A stretch of 63,354 nucleotides of DNA from Candidatus Rokuibacteriota bacterium (GCA_016179965.1 JACPCF010000025.1:1-63354); one strand, 5' to 3'. Numbered from the stretch's first letter, positions 3,401 through 25,567 are shown. A program made the numbers and translations. Notes: generated by a model not told the origin, from the sequence alone.

Positions 3401-5890
3401 CAGATCATGGCCTTCGTCAAGGAGCAGGGCCACGACCAGTCGGCCAAGCTCGCCGAGGAGCGCGGGCCGTTCCCCAACTGGTCGCGCTCCATCTACAAGC
3501 ACGGCCGCCCCATGCGCAACTCCACGGTAACCACGATCGCACCCACCGGGACGATCTCGATGATCGCCGGCTGCTCCTCCGGCATCGAGCCGATCTTCGC
3601 CCTGGCCTTCGAGCACCGGGTGAAGCAGCCCGACGGCGAGCGCGTGCTCCCCTTCGTGAACGAAGTATTCGAGCGGCTCGCCCGGGAGCAGAGCTTCTAT
3701 TCCGAGGCCCTCATGCAGGAAGTCCTCAAGCGCGGCTCGCTCCACGGGATTCCCGGCATGCCGGAGCGCGCCCAGCAGGTCTTCAAGACCTCCCACGAGA
3801 TCCCCTACGAATGGCACGTGCGGCATCAAGCCGCCTTTCAGATGTACACGGACAACGGGGTGTCGAAGTGCGTGACAGGGGACACGCTGATCTTCACCGA
3901 CCGAGGCATCTTGAGAATTCAAGACTTGTACCGGGGGGAATCCTCCGGTGCGTTCAGCCCGATCGAGCTAAAGGTGGCCGACTGGACAGGGTTGGAACCG
4001 GCTGACCTCTTCTACTTCGGCGGGAAGCGGGATGTTGTTGCCTTGGAAGCGGATCTCGGCTTCTCCCTCCGCGCAACACCGAACCACCGGCTTCGGGTGA
4101 TGGCGAACGGAGAGATTGTCTGGCGGCGGATGGATGAGATCAGGGTCGGGGATTCTCTGGTCGTCCCATACGGGTTCGATGTCTACGGCCATTTGCACGA
4201 CTTGGGGGCAATTTACGGAGCTCAGTACCGCCCGGCAGAGCGAACCAATGCCGTCCGACTTCAGTGGCCCAAGAAAATCACAACGGATCTGGCCCGGCTC
4301 ATCGGCTACCTCATCGCCGACGGCGGCTTCAACGAAAATCAGGTTATCTTTACGCAGAAGGACGATGCGGTCACCGAGGATTACCGACAGGTCATGCAAC
4401 GGCGCTTCGGCGTAGAGCCTCGGGTGGGTCTCGACCCACGCCGGGAGAATCTCAAGCAGGTGGTCGTCAACTCCCGGGATTTGATCGCCTTCTTCGCTGA
4501 CTATCTCGGGACCGGGGATCGGGCTGAAACCAAACGCACCCCTCGCTGCATTCTCGCCTCGGGACCCGAGGTGATGAAGGAGTATGTGCGTGGGCTGACC
4601 CTGGACGGTTATGTTAGCGAGCGGGGGCGCGTGGTTGTTCTCGGAACGGTCTCTCGCCAGCTCGCGGAGGAAGTCCAGGCTCTCCTCCTGAACCTCGGGA
4701 TCGTCGCCCGGTTGGAAACGAAGGGGATCCATTACGAGTATCGGCACGTCGAGAACCGCAAGGACGCCTGCTATGAGGTTGTGGTGCTCTCGAAATTCCG
4801 GCGGGCGTTCTTGGAGCGCATCGGCTTTGCCGAAGACCGAAAGCAGACCCGGGCAAGAAAACATCTTGGGCAGCAAAGCCATCCTGATACCCACTATGTC
4901 GTCCCGGGCGTGCGACCGCTGGCGGTGACTCTTGCCCGCGCAAAGATGGCGGAAGCCTCCTCCAGGAAGCTTCAGGACTGGCTCCACAGCTTCATGACGG
5001 CGGATGCAGAGATCACTGAAGAGACCATCATATGGCTACTGGACATTACACGGGAGCTGAAGGAAACCAGCGAATGGAAGACCCTTTCGTGTGTGGCGAA
5101 TCGGAAGGTCATGTACACCCCGGTCACGAGGCTCTGGAGTGACAAGGACGAGGTCTTTGACCTGCAGGTCCCCTCGACTCATTCCTTCATCACCAACGGA
5201 CTGATCAGTCACAACACCATAAACCTGCCCAACGCGGCCTCCGAGGAGGACGTCGCCAGCGCCTATCTCCTGGCCTGGAAGCTCAACTGCCTGGGGATCA
5301 CGGTCTTCCGCGACGGGTGCAAGGGGGATCAGGTGTTGAACGTCGGGATCGGGGCGAAGACGAAGAAGGAGGAGGTGGCGGCGCCGACCACCGGGCCGGC
5401 CGTGATCAAGCCGCGGCCCCACAGCCTCCACGGGCTCACGTACCGGATGGAGACGCCCATCGGCACCGCGTTCATCACGGTGAACGAGACGACCGACGGC
5501 GAGCCGTTCGAGGTCTTCGTCCAGGTGGGCAAGGGGGGCTCGGACACGATGGCGGTGGCCGAGGCCCTGGGGAGACTCATCTCCCTCGGCCTCCGCCTGC
5601 CGTCGCCGTTCTCAGCCGGGCGCCGGCTGGAGGAAGTGATCAACCAGCTCTCCCGCATCGGCGGCGGCCAGCCGACTGGCTTCGGGCCCTCGAAGGTGCT
5701 CTCGCTCCCCGACGCGCTGGCGCGCACCCTCGCCGAGTACCTCGGCCACGTGAAGCCGGACGCGGCGGAAGAGGGCAACGGATCTCGACCGCACCGGATC
5801 GGCGACCTCTGCAAGGAGTGCGGCCAGGCCACCTTTATCTACGAGGAGGGATGCAAGAAGTGCCTGTCGTGCGGCTACAACGAGTGCTGA
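2..5890 (+). CDS. nrdJ: Class II (adenosylcobalamin-dependent) ribonucleotide reductase, 5'-partial, with at least 4 inteins; C-terminal TSCPD-like domain and Zn ribbon
   Basis: Frame open from position 2. Extein motifs TRRGANMGIL, ATNP|CGEQPLLPNEA|CNLGS, RRIGLGIMG, TTIAPTGTIS, DNGVSK|TINLP, GITVFRDG; ends CKECG...CKKCLSCGYNEC. Confidence 0.95.
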   Translation, partial: RKGAFGQNPLYRLRIITRSGLRVFAEGIGFFSSAKASRLRRGLTKAWEFNDVIPFQGPLLRKVYGGPGRGSGPGRGSRGANRKLYRALQHYLPRVAAPRHLTRSRLEKLAETHPAIADHPTLAWFLTNNQFYDQVAKIEEGESLTLDLSVPANNTYVANGFVSHNTRRGANMGILKVDHPDILEFIECKLDGGITNFNISVAATDRFMDALEKGEEYELINPHTGAVVGRLSAREVFERIVRAAWRTGDPGMVFLDRINRSPANPTPEVGLVEATNPCLAGDALVPTDHGLLRMEDLVAQYGNGGVAVQVDSRMLPSQLMVWEGTHNVPIASYSHGCLPISRAFCSGERETVRVRTKAGFELICTPDHRLMTNRAWVRAGELKVGVDRVFIQSNPGMFGTDSRLPFEVSNEIRGRNGRVYRHDLPNTWSQDLGVVLGWLVGDGWLRSGDKNCRAGFSFGGDDLDILERIKTGVNRWYGRPVHAVRRPRGVYHLSYHGKFFVEFFQRLGVRPVPANRKVVPESLFSAPREAVVGFLQGLFTADGTVRDNPQSNSSWIALTSKSRDLLRGVQILLLNLGIKSQIMDRSRPPRTGLFSYETVGGVKRSYESDGVLFELGIFGRSREVFRQEVGFLNAKRQRLENVRYRGFYTQKFNDTVVVVEPAGVRPVYDLTEPQTHTMIANGVVVHQCGEQPLLPNEACVAPETRITTDRGLETVADLYARQRRGESILVATNLNGKGMQIIFRPAAVVKVGVKPTVRVTLTNGQQIRVTADHKILTEEGWKEAGTLAREDRVLIQTSMAGPLTVTSTDGDLQRMFGWFTGDGWFTDAVGLTFGPADELAFERLVPVWRQFTGSATRVQTQAATMVRCIGTERAAAIAAFKTYGFEPGRGPKKRMPKFIFTAPKEEQIRYLQGLFGADGSKTHRKPQVTLSSASLELLRDVQLLLLNLGMRSNIKYYPHRPTGRAWGQVKVNGESYHHFLDLIGFPLTPQKQERCDQFPWQRTKQDRLAIPVASVVPDEEVEVYDVSEPVTHSLIAEGMIVHNCNLGSLNVSKFARRADNGEWTIDWVELERVVRLSVRFLDDVIEMNPYPLPEIDATVKSNRRIGLGIMGWADLLFIMGIPYDSQEALDLAEQIMAFVKEQGHDQSAKLAEERGPFPNWSRSIYKHGRPMRNSTVTTIAPTGTISMIAGCSSGIEPIFALAFEHRVKQPDGERVLPFVNEVFERLAREQSFYSEALMQEVLKRGSLHGIPGMPERAQQVFKTSHEIPYEWHVRHQAAFQMYTDNGVSKCVTGDTLIFTDRGILRIQDLYRGESSGAFSPIELKVADWTGLEPADLFYFGGKRDVVALEADLGFSLRATPNHRLRVMANGEIVWRRMDEIRVGDSLVVPYGFDVYGHLHDLGAIYGAQYRPAERTNAVRLQWPKKITTDLARLIGYLIADGGFNENQVIFTQKDDAVTEDYRQVMQRRFGVEPRVGLDPRRENLKQVVVNSRDLIAFFADYLGTGDRAETKRTPRCILASGPEVMKEYVRGLTLDGYVSERGRVVVLGTVSRQLAEEVQALLLNLGIVARLETKGIHYEYRHVENRKDACYEVVVLSKFRRAFLERIGFAEDRKQTRARKHLGQQSHPDTHYVVPGVRPLAVTLARAKMAEASSRKLQDWLHSFMTADAEITEETIIWLLDITRELKETSEWKTLSCVANRKVMYTPVTRLWSDKDEVFDLQVPSTHSFITNGLISHNTINLPNAASEEDVASAYLLAWKLNCLGITVFRDGCKGDQVLNVGIGAKTKKEEVAAPTTGPAVIKPRPHSLHGLTYRMETPIGTAFITVNETTDGEPFEVFVQVGKGGSDTMAVAEALGRLISLGLRLPSPFSAGRRLEEVINQLSRIGGGQPTGFGPSKVLSLPDALARTLAEYLGHVKPDAAEEGNGSRPHRIGDLCKECGQATFIYEEGCKKCLSCGYNEC
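833..2062 (+). mobile_element. nrdJ intein 2, 410 aa, LAGLIDADG endonuclease, C-terminal Gln
   Basis: CLAGDALV start, CTPDH block B, LGWLVGDG and FLQGLFTADG, VYDLTEP...VVHQ|C. Confidence 0.95.
2096..3130 (+). mobile_element. nrdJ intein 3, 345 aa, LAGLIDADG endonuclease
   Basis: CVAPETRI start, VTADH, FGWFTGDG and YLQGLFGADG, VYDVSEP...IVHN|C. Confidence 0.95.
3869..5215 (+). mobile_element. nrdJ intein 4, 449 aa, LAGLIDADG endonuclease
   Basis: CVTGDTLI start, ATPNH, LIGYLIADG and YVRGLTLDG, VFDLQVP...ISHN|T. Confidence 0.95.
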
Positions 5891-5958
5891 GCCCCTGAGG
5901 GGCGGGTGCCAGCGGGGGCGGGTCATCCGCCCCCGTCGCCGGTTAAGAGGAGGCGGCA

Positions 5959-6153
5959 ATGGAAATTCTGCGGACACTGGTCTTCCTCTGCATCCTGCTG
6001 GCCGCGGTCTGCTTCGTCGTGGGTCTCGCCTACATGGGGGGCATGATCAGCACGGTCTATCGAGTCACGCCGGGCGGTTGGCTCAACGGGGCTCAGACCC
6101 TGCTCCTGTTCGCCATCGCGCTGTACTGCTACGGCCGCACCATCCGCTGGTAG
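5959..6153 (+). CDS. Small hypothetical membrane protein (2 hydrophobic segments)
   Basis: RBS AGAGGAGG upstream; 64 aa, hydrophobic, host-like codon usage. Confidence 0.7.
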   Translation: MEILRTLVFLCILLAAVCFVVGLAYMGGMISTVYRVTPGGWLNGAQTLLLFAIALYCYGRTIRW

Positions 6154-6170
6154 CTTGCTAGAATAGCGGC

Positions 6171-6494
6171 GTGTTCGCGGGCGGCAGCTACGAGGACGTC
6201 GGGCGCTGGCTCCTGGGCTTCGTCAACTCCCACGCCAAGCGTGAGAGTCCCCGTGTCGAGGCCATCGTCGAGGCCGGGGATGAGCGCGCGGGTAAGACCT
6301 TCGCCGTGAGGCTCCGTCTCGGCGAGCGATACCAGCCGCCCCTCGACCAGCCGGCCATCGAGTTCTCCTTCCACGAGGTCGCCGCCGGCAAAGGGAGCTT
6401 GGCCTGGTGTCAGGCGGTGGCCCAGCGCGTGTGCGGCTGGGCCCGCCAGCTGCTCGAGGCCGAGCGAGCCGCCCCGATCACCCGCGCCGGCTGA
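6171..6494 (+). CDS. Hypothetical protein, possibly leaderless
   Basis: 107 aa with normal composition; TGcTAGAAT ends 6 nt before the GTG. Confidence 0.65.
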   Translation: MFAGGSYEDVGRWLLGFVNSHAKRESPRVEAIVEAGDERAGKTFAVRLRLGERYQPPLDQPAIEFSFHEVAAGKGSLAWCQAVAQRVCGWARQLLEAERAAPITRAG

Positions 6495-6500
6495 GGGGCC

Positions 6501-7935
6501 GTGCGCTCCCGCCTTCGCTGGTACGCCCCGGGGGACGTCAACGCCTTCTTCGGCCTCGCCCTCGACAACCTGACCCAGCTGGTCATCCTCTCGTCCCTCC
6601 TCATCGGACTCTTCAAGTTCCCCGCCGACCTGGTGCTCTTCCGGATGATCCCCGGCACCGCCCTGGGGGTGCTGGTCGGGGACCTGACCTACACGTGGCT
6701 GGCCGTGAGGCTCGCGCGCCGGACGGGCAGGGAGGACGTGACGGCGATGCCCTTCGGTAGGAATGGGCGTGACCGTGGCCATGGGGATCGCGAAGCTCAT
6801 CCTCTCCTTCGCGGGCGACTGGGTGCGGCGGATCGTCCCCCGCGCCGCGCTCCTGGGCTCCATCGCCGGCGTGGCGATCCTCCTCATCGCGTTTCTCCCG
6901 GCCCTCAAGATCTTCGCCGACCCGCTGGTGGGCCTCGTGTCCCTCGTGGTCCTGCTGGTCGCGCTGGTGGGGAAGCGGCGCCTTCCCTGGGGGATCCCGG
7001 GCGCGTTCGCTGCGGTGGCCCTCGGGGCGGCGATCTTCTGGGCGCGGGAGGGCCTCGGGCTCGCGGGACCCGGCCAGCGCGCCATGGGAATCCCGACTCC
7101 TGTCCTGGCGCTGCCGTTCCCCACCCTCGCGTGGGTAGCGGCCTTCGAGGCCACGCTCCCCTACTTGGCGGTGGCGCTCCCGTTCGCCCTGGCCACGATC
7201 ATCGGGGGGATCGACAACACTGAATCCGCTGTCGCCGCCGGCGACGAGTACCGGGCCCGCGACATCCTGCTCACGGAGGCGGTGGCCACGCTCCTCGCGG
7301 GGATCGCGGGCGGCGTGATCCAGAACACCCCCTACATCGGTCACCCCGCCTACAAGGCCATGGGCGCCCGCGCCGGCTACACGCTCGCCACGGGGCTCGT
7401 CGTCGGCCTTGGGGCCATGGTCGGCGTCGTGGCGCTGCTCGTCGGCCTCCTGCCCGAGGCGGCGGTGGCGCCGATCCTGGTCTTCATCGGCCTCGAGATC
7501 ACCGCCCAGGCGTTCGTCGCGAGCCCGCCACGCCACGCCCCCGCGGTGGCCGTCAGCTTTCTTCCCGCCGTCGCCGCGCTGCTCCTCATCCAGGAGGGCT
7601 CCCTCCTGGCGGCGGTCGGAAAGGGGTTCGCCGATCTGGGCGGCGAGGCGAGGGCCGGCTACCAGACCCTCCTGGTCCTTGGAAACGGGTTCATCCTCAC
7701 CGCCCTCCTCTGGGGGTGCGCCGTCGCGCTCATCATCGAGCGACGGCTCCGGCTGGCGGGAGTGGCCTTTGCCGTCGCGAGCGTGGCAACCCTGTTCGGG
7801 GTGATCCACTCGCCTCTGCCCAACGGGTCGCTCTTCTGGCCGGGAAGCCCCCCCTCGGCGATCCCCGCGGTGCTCGCCGGCTCCTACGGGGTGGTCGCGG
7901 CGCTCCTCTGGCTCCCGGGGGACCACGCCGAATGA
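6501..7935 (+). pseudogene. NCS2/AzgA-like permease, frameshifted near 6757 (real lesion or assembly error)
   Basis: N-part GDVNAFFGLALDN...TAMPFG in one frame; GMGVTVAMG...ESAVAAGDEY...TPYIGHPAYKAMGARAGY in another. Confidence 0.75.
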
Positions 7936-18189: not shown

Positions 18190-20061
18190 ATGACCCTCGA
18201 CGACAAGCTCCAGCGCCTGCCCGACCGGTCCGGCGTCTATCTCTTCAGGGACGCCAAGGGCCAGGTCGTCTACATCGGCAAGGCGGCCTCCCTCCGGAGC
18301 CGCGTCCGCTCGTACTTTCAGGAGTCCCGGCCCCGGGACCCCAAAACGGACGCCTTGGTGCGGCAGATCAGAGAGCTCGATGTCATCGTCACCGACAACG
18401 AGCTGGAGGCCCTGATCCTCGAGTCCAACCTCGTCAAGAAGCACCGCCCCCGCTACAACATCATCCTCCGGGACGACAAGCACTACCCGTTCCTCAAGCT
18501 CACCACCAACGAGGACTTCCCCCGCCTCGTGGTCGCCCGCCGGGTCCAGAACGACGGCGGCGCCTACTTCGGACCGTTCTATCCGGCCACGGCCATGCGC
18601 GAGACGTTGAGGCTCGTCAGGCAGCTCTTTCCCCTCAGGACCTGCCGGATCAAGATCGACGGGTCGCTCGAGCGGCCCTGCGTCCAGTACTACATCCACC
18701 GCTGCAAGGCCCCGTGCACCGGGTGGGAGACGAAGGAGGGCTACGCCCAGACCGTCAGGGACGTGGAGCGGTTCCTGGAGGGCAAGAACGACGACTTGGC
18801 CAAGGAGCTGACCCGGGAGATGGAGAGCGCGGCGGCCGAGCTGAAGTTCGAGCGGGCGGCGGCGTTGCGCGATCAGGTCCAGGCCCTGAACACGGTGAGG
18901 GAGCGCCAGAAAATCATCTCCACGGAAGAGGTGGATCAGGACATCCTCGGGGTGGTGCGCCAGGGGAGCGACGCGTGCGTCCAGCTCTTCTTCGTGAGGC
19001 GCGGGCGCCTCCTGGGCCGGGAGTCCTTCTTCTTCGACCGCGTGTCGGGGTGGAGCGACGGCGAGATCCTGGGGGCGTTCATCCGACAGTTCTACGCGAA
19101 AAACGTCACCCCGCCGCCCGAGCTCCTCCTCTCCGAGGAGATTCCCGACGCCGAGCTGACCCGGGAGTGGCTGAGCCGCCGGCGCGAGGCGCGGGTGGAG
19201 CTCTTCGCCCCCCGGCGGGGCAAGAAGCGCGAGTTCGTGGCGATGGCGGAGGAGAACGCGGCCCTGGCGCTTCAGACTCACCTGCTCTCCCGGGACAACC
19301 GCCAGCAGGTCATCCAGGAGGAGCTGCGGCGCGCGCTGAACCTCCCCGGCCTTCCCAACCGGATCGAAGGCTTCGACATCTCCAACATCCAGGGGAGCGA
19401 GGCCGTCGGCTCCATGGTCGTCTGGGAGAACGGGGGCATGAAGAAGGACGACTACAAGCGCTTCAAGATCAAGAGCGTCGAGGGGGCGGACGACTACGCC
19501 ATGCTCGGGGAGGTGCTCGCGCGCCGCTACGCCCGGGCCCTGGAGGAGGGAGGGGTGCTGCCGGATCTGATCCTCCTCGACGGGGGCCGCGGCCAGCTCA
19601 ACGTGGGGGTAAAAATTCTGGAGGACCTCGGGCTGGACTGGATCCCCCTGGTGGCCCTCGCCAAGCGGGAGGAGGAGGTGTACACGCCCGAGAGCCTCCA
19701 GCCGCTCGCCCTCGACCTGACCGCCCCCGGGCTCTTGACGCTCAGAAAAATCCGCGACGAGGCCCACCGGTTCGCCGTGTCCTACCACAAGACCCTCAGG
19801 AGCCGGCGGACGATCCAGTCGGTACTGGACCAGATTCCCGGCGTGGGCCCGGCCATTCGAACCACCCTCCTGAAATCCCTGGGCTCCGCCCGCAAGGTCC
19901 GGGAGGCCTCCGTCGCGGAGCTGGCGGCCGTTCCCAAGGTCACTCCGAAGCTCGCCCAGAAGATCCACGCCTTCTTCCACCCGGCCGCCGCGGCGGAGGG
20001 GGGGAACTTTCCGGAGGGTCCGCCGGTTAATGGGAGTGAACTCCACAACGGAAGGGGGTGA
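18190..20061 (+). CDS. uvrC: Excinuclease ABC subunit C
   Basis: GVY...YIGKA (GIY-YIG), DDKHYP, EGFDIS, DGGRGQ, RDEAHRFA, HhH. Confidence 0.98.
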   Translation: MTLDDKLQRLPDRSGVYLFRDAKGQVVYIGKAASLRSRVRSYFQESRPRDPKTDALVRQIRELDVIVTDNELEALILESNLVKKHRPRYNIILRDDKHYPFLKLTTNEDFPRLVVARRVQNDGGAYFGPFYPATAMRETLRLVRQLFPLRTCRIKIDGSLERPCVQYYIHRCKAPCTGWETKEGYAQTVRDVERFLEGKNDDLAKELTREMESAAAELKFERAAALRDQVQALNTVRERQKIISTEEVDQDILGVVRQGSDACVQLFFVRRGRLLGRESFFFDRVSGWSDGEILGAFIRQFYAKNVTPPPELLLSEEIPDAELTREWLSRRREARVELFAPRRGKKREFVAMAEENAALALQTHLLSRDNRQQVIQEELRRALNLPGLPNRIEGFDISNIQGSEAVGSMVVWENGGMKKDDYKRFKIKSVEGADDYAMLGEVLARRYARALEEGGVLPDLILLDGGRGQLNVGVKILEDLGLDWIPLVALAKREEEVYTPESLQPLALDLTAPGLLTLRKIRDEAHRFAVSYHKTLRSRRTIQSVLDQIPGVGPAIRTTLLKSLGSARKVREASVAELAAVPKVTPKLAQKIHAFFHPAAAAEGGNFPEGPPVNGSELHNGRG

Positions 20062-20325
20062 ATGCTCATGAAGGCACTCGTGATCGCGATCGCCGCGCTG
20101 ATCCTGGTGGCCAGCCCCGCCATGGCCGGCCAGTGCCCGCTGCTGATCAAACAGCTGAACGAGGCCGTGGGGAAGATGAAGGCGGATGATGCGAAGGTGA
20201 AGGCGGCCAAGCCGCTGATCGCCGACGCCCAGAAGCTCCACGACGGCGCCAAGCACGCCGACGCCATCAAGAAGTGCGACGAGGCGGCCAAGGTTCTCGG
20301 AGTCAAGCTGGAGAAGAAGATGTAG
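20062..20325 (+). CDS. Small secreted helical protein, paralog 1
   Basis: Signal peptide PAMA|GQCPLLIKQL...LHDGAKHA...KKCDEAAK; start may be 20068. Confidence 0.8.
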   Translation: MLMKALVIAIAALILVASPAMAGQCPLLIKQLNEAVGKMKADDAKVKAAKPLIADAQKLHDGAKHADAIKKCDEAAKVLGVKLEKKM

Positions 20326-20342
20326 GCCCTAGTGAGTTCAGG

Positions 20343-20603
20343 ATGCGCCGACTGATCATGGCGGTTGCGACGGGAGCCCTCGGGCTGGTTCTGTCCGCGG
20401 GGCCGGTCCTGGCCTTTCAGTGCCCGACACTGATCAAGCAGATCAATGACGCGGCGAGCAACCGCTTCGACGCGGGAGCCGCCAGCGCTAAGGCGATGGC
20501 CGCGGAAGCCGACGCCCTGCACAAAGCGGGCAAGCACGCCGAGGCGGTGGCCAAGGCCGACGAGGCTGCCAAGGCGATGGGTCTCAAGCTCATGAAGAAG
20601 TAG
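20343..20603 (+). CDS. Small secreted helical protein, paralog 2
   Basis: Signal peptide PVLA|FQCPTLIKQI...NRFD...LHKAGKHAEAVAKADEAAK. Confidence 0.8.
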   Translation: MRRLIMAVATGALGLVLSAGPVLAFQCPTLIKQINDAASNRFDAGAASAKAMAAEADALHKAGKHAEAVAKADEAAKAMGLKLMKK

Positions 20604-20616
20604 CCGCGAAGCCGAC

Positions 20617-20706
20617 CCCGGGGGCCCGTCCCGCCACGCACGGCGGCGCGGCCCCCGGGAAGCTTTCTTGCGTCTCCCGCCTAAGTGTGGAAAAATCAGC
20701 ACTAAT
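20617..20706 (+). repeat. Duplicated terminator plus promoter-like module, copy 1
   Basis: CCCGGGGGCC/GGCCCCCGGG stem, CTTTCTTGC, then 28-bp GCCTAAGTGTGGAAAAATCAGCACTAAT (20679-20706) identical to 23061-23088. Confidence 0.9.
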
Positions 20707-20707
20707 C

Positions 20708-21040
20708 ATGATGACATGGCTCCGGGGAGCAGCACTGGCGCTCGCTCCGCTGGGTGCCCTTCTCGTTCACGCTTATGGTACGGCGGCTGACTTCACGATC
20801 ATCCAGAAGAACAGCACCTTTTCCGTCCACCAGATCACGATCAAGGTCGGGGATCGGATTACATTCGTGAACGCGGACAGCGCGAACCACAACGTGTATT
20901 CAGAGACAAAAGGCTCCGAGTTTGACATACTCCAGCGTCCCGGGCGCTCCGATACGGTTCGCTTCTCGCAGCCTGGCAGCGTCGAGGTCCAGTGCGCCAT
21001 CCATCCCGACATGACACTGGAGGTGCAGGTGAGGCCGTAA
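20708..21040 (+). CDS. Secreted cupredoxin (plastocyanin/amicyanin-like, type 1 Cu)
   Basis: Signal-like N-terminus; IKVGDRITFVN...HNV; C-AI-H-PD-M ligand loop. Confidence 0.85.
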   Translation: MMTWLRGAALALAPLGALLVHAYGTAADFTIIQKNSTFSVHQITIKVGDRITFVNADSANHNVYSETKGSEFDILQRPGRSDTVRFSQPGSVEVQCAIHPDMTLEVQVRP

Positions 21041-21051
21041 CGGACGTGGGG

Positions 21052-22605
21052 ATGATGCTCCTCGACCACCTGCAGCGGCGCCTTCGCGTCAAGGTCATCG
21101 CGTTGATCGCCGGGATCCTGATCGTCGGCTTCGGCCTCCTCGTGATCCTGAACATCGGGCGCGAGGCCCAGATACTCGGAAGCATCCAGAGCGGCATGCT
21201 CCAGGCACGGCCGGACGTCATCCGCCGGCTCGTGCAGGACCTCAGGTCGGAGCTCAAGGACGTCCGTCGGCTCGACGTGTATCGGGCGAACGGCGTGGAG
21301 GCGTTCTCCGACCTCGAGACGCTGAATCGGGTGAACCAGCTCGCCAAGCTGGACCCGGAGGTGGTCAAGCGCATCTACCGGATGCACCGCGAGCCGGGAG
21401 AGCGGATCAGCCATCCGCTGTTCACGCGGGCCGTGGAGACCATCACGTCCCAGGAGACCTACGAGTCCCTCGACGGCGGCCGAGTGCTCACCCTCTTCCG
21501 ACCCCTGGAGAACCGCAAGAGGTGCCAGGCGTGCCACGGCGAAGACCACCGGGTCCGCGGCGTGGTCCGGATCACCCTCGGGGTCGAGAAGCTGGATGCG
21601 GAGCTTCGGGCGGCCCGGAACCGGCAGATCGCGATCGCCGCGCTGACGATCCTCGGCGTGACGGCCACTGTGATCGTCTTCCTGGGCCGTGTCGTCCTGG
21701 AGCCGATCGCCCGGGTGGCGGCCGCCGCTCGGCGAATCGGCGCCGGGGACTTCGACGCGCGGGTGGCGGCGGGGAGGCGGGACGAGATCGGTGATCTCGG
21801 ACGGGTGATCAACGACATGGCGAACCGCCTCGACGCCGCGCGCACCGACCTGGAGGCGCGTAATGCCGAGCTCGCGACCACCTTGCAGAGCCTCACGGAG
21901 TCGATGAAGAAGGTCGAGCTGCTCGAGCAGGTCAAGGGCGAGCTGGCCAAGTTCGTGCCCGAGTCCGTGAAGCGGCTGCTCGAGCAGAACCCGGACGCGC
22001 GTGAGCTCGAGAAGCGCGAGGCGGACGTGTCCGTCCTGTTCCTCGACGTGGAAGGCTACACGCGCCTCTCCGAGCAGCTCGCGCCCCAGCAGCTCAACCG
22101 GATGATCCAGGCCTACTTCTCGGGCTTCCTCGAGATCATCCGGGCCCACCACGGCGACGTCAACGAAACGGCGGGCGACGGCCTCATGGTGATCTTCCAG
22201 AGCGAGGGGAGCCGCACACGCCACGCCCAGAACGCTGCGGGCGCGGCCTTCGAGCTCCTCGGCAAGGTCGTCGAGCTCAACCAGGAGTTCGTCGGGGTCT
22301 ACCCGCCCGTGGCAATCCACGTCGGGATCAACAGCGGCCCGGCGCTGGTCGGCGCGACGAAGCTGGATGCCAGCGGCGGCGGCCGCTGGACCTTCACCGC
22401 TTCTGGCCCGACGACAAACCTGGCGGCCCGCACCGCGGGGCTCACGAAGGGGGGCGAGGTCAGGGTGGGCCCCGAGACGGCCGAGCGGATCAAGCACCAC
22501 TACGTGCTCCAGGACACCGGTGAGCATCAACTCAAGAATGTCTCTCAGCCGGTGCGGGTCTACCGGCTGGTTCCCGCGGGGGTCTACCGGACAGTCGACC
22601 CCTGA
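21052..22605 (+). CDS. Membrane class III nucleotidyl cyclase with periplasmic heme-c motif and HAMP domain
   Basis: TM, CQACH, TM, HAMP (EPI...DEIGDL), VLFLDVEGYT, ETAGDG, HVGINSG, NLAAR, LKNV. Confidence 0.9.
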   Translation: MMLLDHLQRRLRVKVIALIAGILIVGFGLLVILNIGREAQILGSIQSGMLQARPDVIRRLVQDLRSELKDVRRLDVYRANGVEAFSDLETLNRVNQLAKLDPEVVKRIYRMHREPGERISHPLFTRAVETITSQETYESLDGGRVLTLFRPLENRKRCQACHGEDHRVRGVVRITLGVEKLDAELRAARNRQIAIAALTILGVTATVIVFLGRVVLEPIARVAAAARRIGAGDFDARVAAGRRDEIGDLGRVINDMANRLDAARTDLEARNAELATTLQSLTESMKKVELLEQVKGELAKFVPESVKRLLEQNPDARELEKREADVSVLFLDVEGYTRLSEQLAPQQLNRMIQAYFSGFLEIIRAHHGDVNETAGDGLMVIFQSEGSRTRHAQNAAGAAFELLGKVVELNQEFVGVYPPVAIHVGINSGPALVGATKLDASGGGRWTFTASGPTTNLAARTAGLTKGGEVRVGPETAERIKHHYVLQDTGEHQLKNVSQPVRVYRLVPAGVYRTVDP

Positions 22606-22705
22606 CGGAACTTTGAGGAGCTGTTCGTGGTTTTTTAGGGTAGAGTCGCTGAAACGGGCCCTGCCTCCCTGGAAGCGAGCCCCAAAGGAAAGGGGGTGAT
22701 TCAGA

Positions 22706-22987
22706 ATGAACCGCCCGATCATCGGGATTACCACGTTGCTCCTGGCCGTCGGCCTCTCCGTCAGTCCCGCGGTGGCCGGCCAGTGCCCGGCGCTGATCGC
22801 CCAGATCATGGCTGCGGCGGGCAACCGTTTCGACGGGAGCGCCGCCAGCGCGAGGGCGCTGGCCGCTCAGGCAAAGATGCTCCACGACGAAGCCGTTAGC
22901 ATGAAGCAAGCTGCGAAGCATGCCGAGTCCGTGGCGAAGGCCCAAGAGGCCGCCAAAGCGATCGGTCTGACCCTCAAGATGAAGTAG
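22706..22987 (+). CDS. Small secreted helical protein, paralog 3
   Basis: Signal peptide PAVA|GQCPALIAQI...NRFD...LHDE...KHAESVAKAQEAAK; AGGGGGTGA RBS shared with paralog 1. Confidence 0.8.
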   Translation: MNRPIIGITTLLLAVGLSVSPAVAGQCPALIAQIMAAAGNRFDGSAASARALAAQAKMLHDEAVSMKQAAKHAESVAKAQEAAKAIGLTLKMK

Positions 22988-22997
22988 CCCCCAGCCC

Positions 22998-23088
22998 CCC
23001 CGGGGGCCGACCTGCCGTTTGGCGCGGGGCCGGCCCCCGGGGACCTTTCTTGCTTCCTTGGCCTAAGTGTGGAAAAATCAGCACTAAT
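22998..23088 (+). repeat. Duplicated terminator plus promoter-like module, copy 2 (leuS upstream)
   Basis: CCCCGGGGGCCG/CGGCCCCCGGGG stem, CTTTCTTGC, 28-bp identical block directly before the leuS ATG. Confidence 0.9.

Positions 23089-25567
<2,479 letters not shown>

Follow-up and report, generated by a model that had tools for sequence, protein, structure and literature searches.

What connects a copper protein, a sensor cyclase with a predicted haem and three small secreted proteins that are encoded side by side between uvrC and leuS? This question is raised by a 63,354-nucleotide stretch of DNA (GCA_016179965.1, JACPCF010000025.1:1-63354), here called the window, from Candidatus Rokuibacteriota bacterium, a soil bacterium of the Rokubacteria (Methylomirabilota) whose genome we label G000. 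The initial annotation had tentatively assigned the five products to a single periplasmic redox or copper signalling system without described counterpart. All five co-oriented genes that it placed on the plus strand between uvrC and leuS are indeed present, with start codons that we corrected. The locus combines two layers, resident small genes and an inserted cupredoxin-cyclase pair. In our judgement there is about an even chance that the small genes merely live next door and that the cupredoxin serves as the periplasmic redox wire to the sensor haem and so gates the cyclase.

The cupredoxin and the sensor cyclase

The proposal that the cupredoxin and the haem-HAMP-cyclase protein belong together is supported by their repeated adjacency. 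The pair occurs in at least eight contexts, that of the window included, and the flanking genes differ from one context to the next. A cupredoxin gene lies 0–137 nt upstream of the cyclase gene in the genus of the window (g1: G000, G102, G082 and G118) and in G063, G100 and G103, where the G100 pair rests on an unpublished genome. Further pairs were found on contig L025 and in L120, L122–L126 and L128 among 80 metagenome loci retrieved with the cupredoxin profile. All six genomes that encode a cupredoxin at least 63% identical to that of the window (G082, G102, G118, G063, G100 and G103) have it immediately 5' of their closest cyclase orthologue. The pair is set between uvrC-small and leuS in g1, between genes for a cytochrome c peroxidase (CCP) and Meth_synt_2 in G063, and between an M24 peptidase and an ATP-binding cassette (ABC) ATPase in G103 and L125. 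It has OmpA upstream in L025, L122 and L128, the last with an integrase beyond the pair, adjoins SBP_bac_5 in L126 and lies in a thiolase region in L123.

Full-length cyclase orthologues (52–94% identical) are encoded in most genomes of the family to which the window belongs, and also in metagenome-assembled genomes labelled Binatia, Deltaproteobacteria and others. In a tree of 89 distinct cyclases (FastTree, local supports only), ten of the eleven cupredoxin-linked rows fall into one clade (support 100), which has 11 rows in all. Its one other member is G118, where the cyclase lies beside a contig end holding the last 34 codons of a cupredoxin. The last linked row, L124, stands by itself at the base of the second major clade, so that cupredoxin linkage requires two changes on this tree. 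The pair has been kept together through many rearrangements, though largely by shared descent. The L025 cyclase (5200–7000) is 89% identical to the window protein and has about 69% GC in a contig of 56–62% GC labelled Nitrospirae, which fits either recent horizontal transfer or a mis-binned contig.

The periplasmic part of the cyclase was assigned by profile and fold comparison. Two hydrophobic segments enclose a domain that bears the motif C158-Q-A-C-H162. This domain matches the Pfam profile Mcp40H-20_sensor (PF21563) with 34.1 bits (cut-off 27, E 3.7e-8) over profile positions 56–109 of 112 only, that is the C-terminal half, and is the sole PF21563 match in G000; with PF11845 it scores 15.8 bits, under the cut-off of 24.1. 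A phmmer comparison with 3b47 and 3b42 gave E values of about 2e-4. The CxxCH motif is present in 89 of 89 cyclase orthologues and is invariant in our alignments A2 and A5. An AlphaFold model of residues 36–191 (mean predicted local distance difference test score, pLDDT, 75) places the haem motif on a helix (121–127) between strands. The top Foldseek matches to this model are GSU0935 (3b42, E 1.3e-7) and GSU0582 (3b47, E 6.4e-5), followed by the Cache domains of WalK, CitA and DcuS, with TM-scores of only 0.42–0.58 against the domain-swapped crystal dimers. By these sequence and fold comparisons the sensor, which here has a known but rare output, is a member of the known sCache_haem family (formerly PAS-like) of GSU0582 and GSU0935, and a covalently bound haem c is predicted. 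Prerequisites for cytochrome c maturation are encoded in G000, with three Cytochrom_C_asm (PF01578) matches.

The GSU0582 and GSU0935 domains undergo a redox-linked exchange of an axial ligand and have haem potentials of −156 mV and −251 mV, respectively (PMC8396549). Met49 is invariant in the cyclase orthologue alignments (A2 and A5) and could, by analogy with Met60 of GSU0935 in the same source, be an exchangeable sixth haem ligand. Like GSU0582, GSU0935 and the Tll0287/DUF3365 sensors, the window protein carries the same periplasmic domain between two transmembrane (TM) segments, with one CxxCH, and then a HAMP domain. The Geobacter sensors have a methyl-accepting chemotaxis protein (MCP) output, whereas the window sensor is joined to a class III cyclase with a Glu/Thr pair. 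The window copy also differs from the Geobacter-type sensors in lacking 16 amino acids (48 nt) just after TM1, at 21170–21180 (residues about 44/45), that are kept in 12 of 12 aligned orthologues. In relatives these 48 nt are flanked by the near-repeats GTCCTCG and ATACTCG, and the deletion could reflect either true slippage or a fault of the assembly.

A 2026 preprint lists Guanylate_cyc among the outputs fused to sCache_haem and describes a signalling-type TM-HAMP sCache_haem protein with the properties of a nitric oxide (NO) sensor, namely slow NO release with a koff like those of H-NOX and NosP (PMC12889525). The statement that no such system had been described was therefore too broad with respect to the sensor family and its cyclase fusion; it appears to hold for the cupredoxin partner within the literature that we searched. 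The dedicated cupredoxin gene directly upstream, which distinguishes one clade of window-type sensors, is not mentioned for sCache_haem in the available portions of PMC12889525 and PMC8396549, and the word "cupredoxin" occurs 0 times in PMC12889525.

Pfam places Guanylate_cyc (PF00211) after HAMP. The metal-binding residues Asp332 and Asp376 and the transition-state residues Asn456 and Arg460 are kept in all 13 orthologues of alignment A2 and align with those of CyaB and Cya2. The base-specifying pair consists of Glu372 (22165–22167), which aligns with Glu488 of Cya2, and Thr449 (22396–22398), which aligns with the Thr of CyaB. Both residues are invariant in the same 13 orthologues, a set not picked by motif; a larger count for Glu372 (88 of 89) is biased, since part of these loci were retrieved with the pattern ETAGDGLM, and is not used here. 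Guanylate cyclases are marked by Glu and a variable second residue, Thr included (PMC4215837), and the single exchange E488K turns Cya2 into an adenylate cyclase (PMC5995499). With Glu as the purine-specifying residue and Thr as its partner, the window cyclase probably makes cyclic GMP (cGMP) rather than cyclic AMP. It shares this Glu with Cya2 from Synechocystis and other bacterial class III guanylate cyclases, and it resembles the NO-sensitive soluble guanylate cyclase (sGC) in that a haem sensor would control the cyclase. The second specifying residue is Thr in the window protein, Gly in Cya2 and Cys in sGC, and the predicted sensor is an extracytoplasmic c-type haem Cache domain instead of the H-NOX or CHASE2 domains of the sGC/Cya2 comparison.

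The cupredoxin matches Pfam Copper-bind (PF00127) with E 1.6e-7 (32.1 bits, cut-off 21.2). All 16 relatives compared retain His61, Cys96, His99 and Met102, and these residues align with the copper ligands of amicyanins, which are also the best solved relatives (E 4.4e-9). It has the size, the signal peptide, the His...Cys-x2-His-x2-Met set and the short amicyanin-type loop of amicyanin from Paracoccus (1AAC and other structures). Because the score for the amicyanin equivalog NCBIfam TIGR02657 (28.8 bits) lies under the cut-off of 110.2, we regard the protein as amicyanin-like and not as an amicyanin orthologue. Unlike for amicyanin, no methylamine dehydrogenase (mau) genes are among its annotated neighbours; members of this subfamily instead follow CCP/MauG-family genes and precede chemoreceptors or, in the window, the cyclase. 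A search for longer proteins that fuse such a cupredoxin to a sensor scored 7999 candidates; three of them matched with E ≤ 1e-10, and all three lack a signalling domain, which is weak evidence.

The uvrC–leuS junction and its resident genes

We turned to the small genes by comparing the same junction in other genomes. The order uvrB-uvrC-small(one or two copies)-leuS-lptE is found in 17 of 20 loci (the best small-family match of 20 different genomes, from the top rows of the genome survey), and the fetched stretches contain no cupredoxin or cyclase match. G027 and G086 show this arrangement too. In G063 the uvrC-small-leuS order is intact and the cupredoxin-cyclase pair lies on another contig. 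The uvrC gene of the window is 74–90% identical to the uvrC genes that adjoin small genes in relatives. The small genes are thus residents of the uvrC–leuS junction throughout this Rokubacteria family, in one to three copies.

The cupredoxin and cyclase genes, in turn, are a two-gene module inserted between smallB and leuS in one genus (g1). A 58-nt direct repeat (copies 88% identical) brackets cupredoxin, cyclase and smallC in the window, its second copy leading directly up to the leuS start codon. The repeat also occurs in the sister genome G102, where it encloses cupredoxin and cyclase alone and where its second copy again reaches the leuS start; the order there is uvrC-A-B-cupredoxin-cyclase-leuS, without smallC. 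G118 shows the same order spread over two contig ends, and smallC is absent here as well. The insertion has duplicated the leuS leader, so that the module now stands behind a copy of it. Flanking repeats like those of g1 were not found around L025 and L006.

Folding revealed a hairpin after smallB (−44.9 kcal/mol, z −3.35, with none of 200 shuffled sequences reaching this stability) and another after smallC (−41.4 kcal/mol, z −2.0), each followed by CUUUCUU; smallA ends 17 nt before smallB. The small genes are probably transcribed separately from the cupredoxin-cyclase pair. Because the closest relatives, G102 and G118, lack smallC, and because a hairpin follows both smallB and smallC, it seems that smallC arose together with its 3' flank by a local duplication in G000 only. 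None of the two hairpins, the 58-nt repeat, the 16-residue deletion and the Glu at the base-specifying site had featured in the initial annotation.

Two further genomes show unusual arrangements. In G113 the small gene is separated from leuS by some 1.6 kb of unrelated coding DNA (L210, 1478–3072), and this different insert suggests that the junction is prone to insertion. G082 (L009 = L026 = L038) contains an open reading frame (ORF) of 137 codons that begins with the signal peptide and QCP of smallA and ends with the C-terminal two thirds of the cupredoxin, which reflects either a deletion joining two genes or collapsed or mis-assembled sequence.

The three small proteins are paralogues with pairwise identities of 46–50%. 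Each has a signal-peptide-like N-terminus that ends in A-x-A, directly followed by Q-C-P, and two His. All 35 aligned family members share Cys25, Pro26, His60 and His65. An AlphaFold model (pLDDT 84) is a three-helix bundle (helices 24–37, 44–61 and 65–79). Since the start of helix 1, the end of helix 2 and the start of helix 3 lie at the same end of the bundle, the Cys and the two His should, by the topology of the model, be close together. In the model this end looks like a metal or cofactor site, and the small proteins are probably periplasmic metal-binding (or haem-binding) proteins with a separate function. Scans of the small proteins against Pfam, NCBIfam and PHROGs gave nothing above cut-offs, and Foldseek returned no match at E ≤ 1e-3. 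The top Foldseek row, apo LanD (9c8w, E 1.1, TM-score 0.83 on the target), reflects a generic three-helix bundle, and we draw no homology from it. The nearest Atlas clusters of smallB are Rokubacteria hypotheticals. A likeness to PF27144 (PA14_33160) comes only from a precomputed match to the relative P0108 (77% identical to smallA) and from a related Atlas cluster (language-model feature score 0.95), in which 22% of the members carry PF27144; no paper on PA14_33160 was found in the literature searched.

Of 201 sampled genomes of the phylum, 165 encode the small family; within the window's own family the figure is 122 of 125. Each carries one to five matches (these tallies include five unpublished genomes). 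G000 itself encodes a fourth, divergent member on contig C133 (6598–6855; L004 1426–1800), next to RNase PH-like and RdgB-like genes that were named by eye from their N-terminal sequences.

Outside g1, a small-family gene adjoins the pair on L025, directly 3' of the cyclase. This gene is divergent (profile E 2.2e-7, Cys-Pro ... His-x4-His) and has host-like GC. In L128, which is 98% identical to the L025 locus, the small-family gene is cut by a 118-nt deletion and the pair is intact. A phage-type integrase and an HTH_17 gene follow this shortened gene (L128 1799–2074 and 2057–3355 for these features), a hint that in this lineage the pair moves with or next to a mobile element. Co-occurrence of all three families was the check that the initial annotation had named. 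Cupredoxin and cyclase pass it in at least eight contexts; the small family accompanies the pair only in g1 and in loci of the L025 type. With only two of eight contexts, membership of the small family in the module is doubtful. The five-part system fails in this respect, with the small genes being residents of the junction in 17 of 20 relatives and smallC missing from G102 and G118.

A wider cluster and the competing explanations

Relatives of the cupredoxin also occur apart from the cyclase. Among 72 metagenome loci without the cyclase pair, 56 contain a CCP/MauG-family gene, which in 51 ends less than 300 nt upstream of the cupredoxin; in 13 of the 16 loci without it, the upstream sequence is shorter than 500 nt. 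By a tally of Pfam tables, 40 of the 72 loci have a signalling gene no more than 3.5 kb away. It is chemoreceptor-type in 31 of these (MCPsignal, 4HB_MCP, CHASE3 or CHASE8 with HAMP) and encodes a kinase, a CheA-like, a HAMP-only or a cyclic nucleotide monophosphate (cNMP)-binding protein in the other nine. A cytochrome c or a second cupredoxin often stands between cupredoxin and transducer. At least seven of the 32 loci without a signalling gene have only unrelated annotated neighbours (L130, L136, L160, L164, L172, L173 and L183); the remaining ones have neighbours without Pfam match or flanks too short to judge. Observed arrangements include CCP-cupredoxin-MCP in three Rokubacteria loci, Leptospira gomenensis (L028) and L. 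ellisii (L029), CHASE kinase-CCP-cupredoxin-response regulators (L030 and L031), CCP-cupredoxin-MHYT kinase (L035), CCP-cupredoxin-cyclase (G063) and CCP-CCP-cupredoxin-ABC binding protein (L027).

Cupredoxins are well-known electron donors of CCPs: pseudoazurin serves this role for the enzyme from Paracoccus pantotrophus and a lipid-modified azurin for that of Neisseria. A cupredoxin gene directly after CCP_MauG, as in the wider subfamily, fits such a donor-enzyme pair with a di-haem CCP. The wider subfamily differs from these donor systems in that a chemoreceptor, kinase or cyclase adjoins in many loci, and the window locus differs in lacking a CCP. No description of a peroxidase-cupredoxin-transducer cluster was found in the full-text literature searched, and both this cluster and the dedicated cupredoxin partner of the cyclase appear to be undescribed there.

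The peroxidase-cupredoxin-chemoreceptor cluster is common on soil and aquifer contigs (L129–L199). In L161, L171 and L152 it also holds an MsrPQ-like pair (Oxidored_molyb and Ferric_reduct), with a function in periplasmic oxidative damage. In L178, L182 and L184 a gene for a cNMP-binding protein follows the second cupredoxin or the chemoreceptor, a further link to cyclic nucleotides.

How might the two proteins of the window work together? The most likely connection is electron exchange between cupredoxin and haem. Once exported and loaded with copper, the cupredoxin would exchange single electrons with the sensor's c-type haem and thereby convey the periplasmic redox state to it, a state that the di-haem CCP, and hence peroxide, would set in the wider subfamily. 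Haem oxidation or a change in ligation, as in GSU0582 and GSU0935, would move TM2 and the HAMP domain and thereby switch the dimeric cyclase, with cGMP as the probable output. The small proteins would be neighbours and not core parts. A complex prediction with the sensor domain, haem and the cupredoxin scored 0.01 (mark 0.32), which is evidence neither way.

Several observations weigh against this redox-wire mechanism. Of 80 genome-contig cyclase loci (flanks of up to 4 kb), L038 and L040 alone have a cupredoxin gene immediately 5' of the cyclase; in L108 a weak cupredoxin match is 1.5 kb away, and none of the 80 contains a CCP. No cupredoxin was found near about 75 other cyclase orthologue loci, and the neighbours of the remaining orthologues share nothing. 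As most orthologues lack a cupredoxin, this partner is dispensable for the sensor, and since the linked cyclases are essentially one clade plus one row, much of the apparent conservation is shared descent. The usual potentials of cupredoxins lie far above the values of −156 and −251 mV of the haem c sensors, so that copper would be an oxidant of the haem and not a two-way partner. The G000 locus has no CCP, the two CCP genes of this genome being on another contig (C52). None of eight checked receptors adjoining CCP-cupredoxin pairs contains CxxCH, which speaks against haem c in these receptors; haem-copper exchange can therefore not be the general mechanism of the wider cluster. Because of the 16-residue deletion after TM1 the window cyclase may signal abnormally, and the Glu/Thr pair predicts, and does not prove, the use of GTP. 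L025 is a second, unrelated context with a small-family gene beside the pair, contrary to mere neighbourhood. Finally, NO-sensor properties have been reported for a signalling-type sCache_haem protein (PMC12889525).

This last point leads to an alternative that we consider possible though not probable: the haem-c Cache domain would bind NO and the cyclase would answer with cGMP, as a periplasm-facing analogue of sGC. In that case the cupredoxin would act only as a reductant, maintaining the haem in its ferrous, NO-competent form, or would serve another enzyme and merely be co-expressed. Membership of the window sensor in the sCache_haem family argues for this idea, as do the slow NO release of the TM-HAMP protein and the listing of Guanylate_cyc among the fused outputs (both PMC12889525) and the Glu/Thr pair typical of guanylate cyclases. 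It also accounts for the many orthologues without cupredoxin, in which the primary signal must reach the haem without that protein. It leaves unexplained why a cupredoxin gene has remained directly upstream across at least eight contexts, in two separate regions of the tree. Furthermore, it is derived from family members outside the window's clade, and the invariant Met49, as a candidate sixth ligand, fits a redox-linked ligand switch equally well as displacement by NO. A broader version of the redox idea strikes us as rather doubtful: the cupredoxin could be the input wire of a widespread module for peroxide and redox co-sensing, its oxidation state being determined by peroxide turnover and read by the adjacent transducer, and the small proteins could be donors that supply it with copper in the periplasm. 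The transducers would be 4HB/CHASE3 chemoreceptors, CHASE/MHYT kinases and, in the Rokubacteria clade, the haem-c Cache guanylate cyclase.

The original idea of a five-part system, in which the small proteins act as copper chaperones for the cupredoxin, as haem carriers or as modulators of the sensor, now seems unlikely. The invariance of Cys25, Pro26, His60 and His65 and the model topology, which would bring Cys and both His together as in a metal site, speak in its favour, and so does L025, where the divergent member directly after the cyclase has host-like GC in contrast to the roughly 69% of the cyclase. With one to five copies per genome, two adjacencies in about eight contexts are above chance expectation by a rough estimate. 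These points are set against the 17 of 20 relatives that hold a small gene at the junction without the module, the different contigs of small gene and pair in G063, the absence of smallC from G102 and G118, the hairpins that part smallB and smallC from the next genes, the truncated small homologue beside the intact pair of L128 and the other 1.6-kb insert of G113, which suggests an insertion-prone site. Small-family matches are also lacking in L122–L126 (short flanks) and in the 72 other cupredoxin loci, and among the 80 cyclase loci the only match is in L038 (G082, same genus). We consider it quite improbable that the cupredoxin is hitch-hiking, that is, a donor for a CCP encoded elsewhere, left over from a broken CCP-cupredoxin-cyclase neighbourhood like that of G063, with its spacing a matter of descent. 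This explanation would agree with the overwhelming CCP linkage of the subfamily (56 of 72), the two CCP genes that G000 keeps on C52, the established biochemistry of cupredoxins as CCP donors and the single clade formed by most cupredoxin-linked cyclases. However, after loss of CCP the cupredoxin stayed with the cyclase in g1, L025, G103, L123, L124 and L126, and in CCP-free pairs its copper ligands are intact at identities down to 60–67%. In addition, L124 pairs a cupredoxin with a cyclase of the other major clade, and across the subfamily no other kind of gene follows the cupredoxin nearly as often as one for a signal transducer.

Gene layout and significance

The coordinates of all features are collected in Table 1. 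The locus ORFs are more than chance reading frames, because each has relatives elsewhere and the high GC content at third codon positions that is usual for genes of G000. The ATG start of the cupredoxin matches its orthologues in alignment A3. A longer ORF for smallB with a GTG start at 20274 was discarded as an artefact, and the start was set at 20343.

Table 1. Features of the uvrC–leuS interval, in window coordinates
Feature	Position	Strand	Remarks
uvrC	18190..20061	+	ORF; left border of the conserved uvrC-small-leuS junction; context gene
smallA	20062..20325	+	87 aa; secreted, modelled as three-helix protein; invariant Cys25-Pro26, His60, His65
smallB	20343..20603	+	86 aa; smallA paralogue, E 1.7e-44 to small-family profile
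Hairpin 3' of smallB	20604..20675	+	terminator-like, then CUUUCUU
Direct repeat, copy 1	20649..20706	.	copy of leuS leader, now 5' of cupredoxin
Cupredoxin	20708..21040	+	type 1, amicyanin-like; signal-peptide-like N-terminus
Membrane sensor cyclase	21052..22605	+	517 aa; TM1, predicted haem-c Cache, TM2, HAMP, coiled coil, class III cyclase
Periplasmic sCache_haem domain	21157..21624	+	residues 36-191; from model and fold search
C-Q-A-C-H motif for predicted haem c attachment	21523..21537	+	residues 158-162; read from sequence
HAMP domain	21679..21834	+	Pfam HAMP 6.1e-16
Class III nucleotidyl cyclase domain	22012..22563	+	Pfam Guanylate_cyc 3.6e-21
smallC	22706..22987	+	93 aa; third paralogue
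Hairpin 3' of smallC	22988..23057	+	terminator-like, then CUUUCUU
Direct repeat, copy 2	23031..23088	.	leuS leader in its native place
leuS	23089..25495	+	ATG start 23089; right border, context gene; frame change near 24378

The leuS gene of the window is split between frames. Residues 1–430 of LeuS from G102 correspond to 23089–24378 and residues 440–812 to 24377–25495 in another frame, so that this essential gene either carries a frameshift or was misassembled. An exact 20-nt repeat (20082–20101 and 21627–21646) links the signal-peptide region of smallA with the TM2 region of the cyclase; it is probably due to chance in Ala/Ile-rich hydrophobic coding sequence of a GC-rich genome. A scan of the intergenic regions (plus strand) for promoter and terminator consensus sequences gave nothing useful. 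Since an Rfam scan of 19900–23300 gave a single match at chance level (E 0.41), the duplicated leuS leader corresponds to no known riboswitch or leader. A 405-nt contig from an aquifer metatranscriptome covers 22130–22520 within the cyclase with 11 differences and is a weak sign of its expression; this evidence comes from one run that holds 5% of the sampled words, and uncovered stretches are uninformative.

For the interpretation of genomes, this locus shows that an insertion-prone junction can mimic a multi-gene "system", which calls for caution in genome scans. For the sensor family it offers a new handle. Haem-c Cache sensors are common and their signals are debated, with redox potential suggested by the Geobacter work and NO by the 2026 preprint. 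A clade with a one-electron carrier encoded directly upstream provides a concrete test of whether a protein redox partner addresses such sensors. The Glu/Thr signature suggests cGMP as the product, and bacterial guanylate cyclases are rare; the window-type family is widespread in Rokubacteria. The wider cluster may matter more than the window's own pair: peroxidase, cupredoxin, sometimes cytochrome c, and chemoreceptor genes stand together on dozens of contigs and in two Leptospira species, and may represent a general route for sensing peroxide or the periplasmic redox state. If the co-sensing idea were true, the system of the window would parallel the haem-sGC-cGMP axis in a bacterium, facing the periplasm and taking its input from a copper protein.

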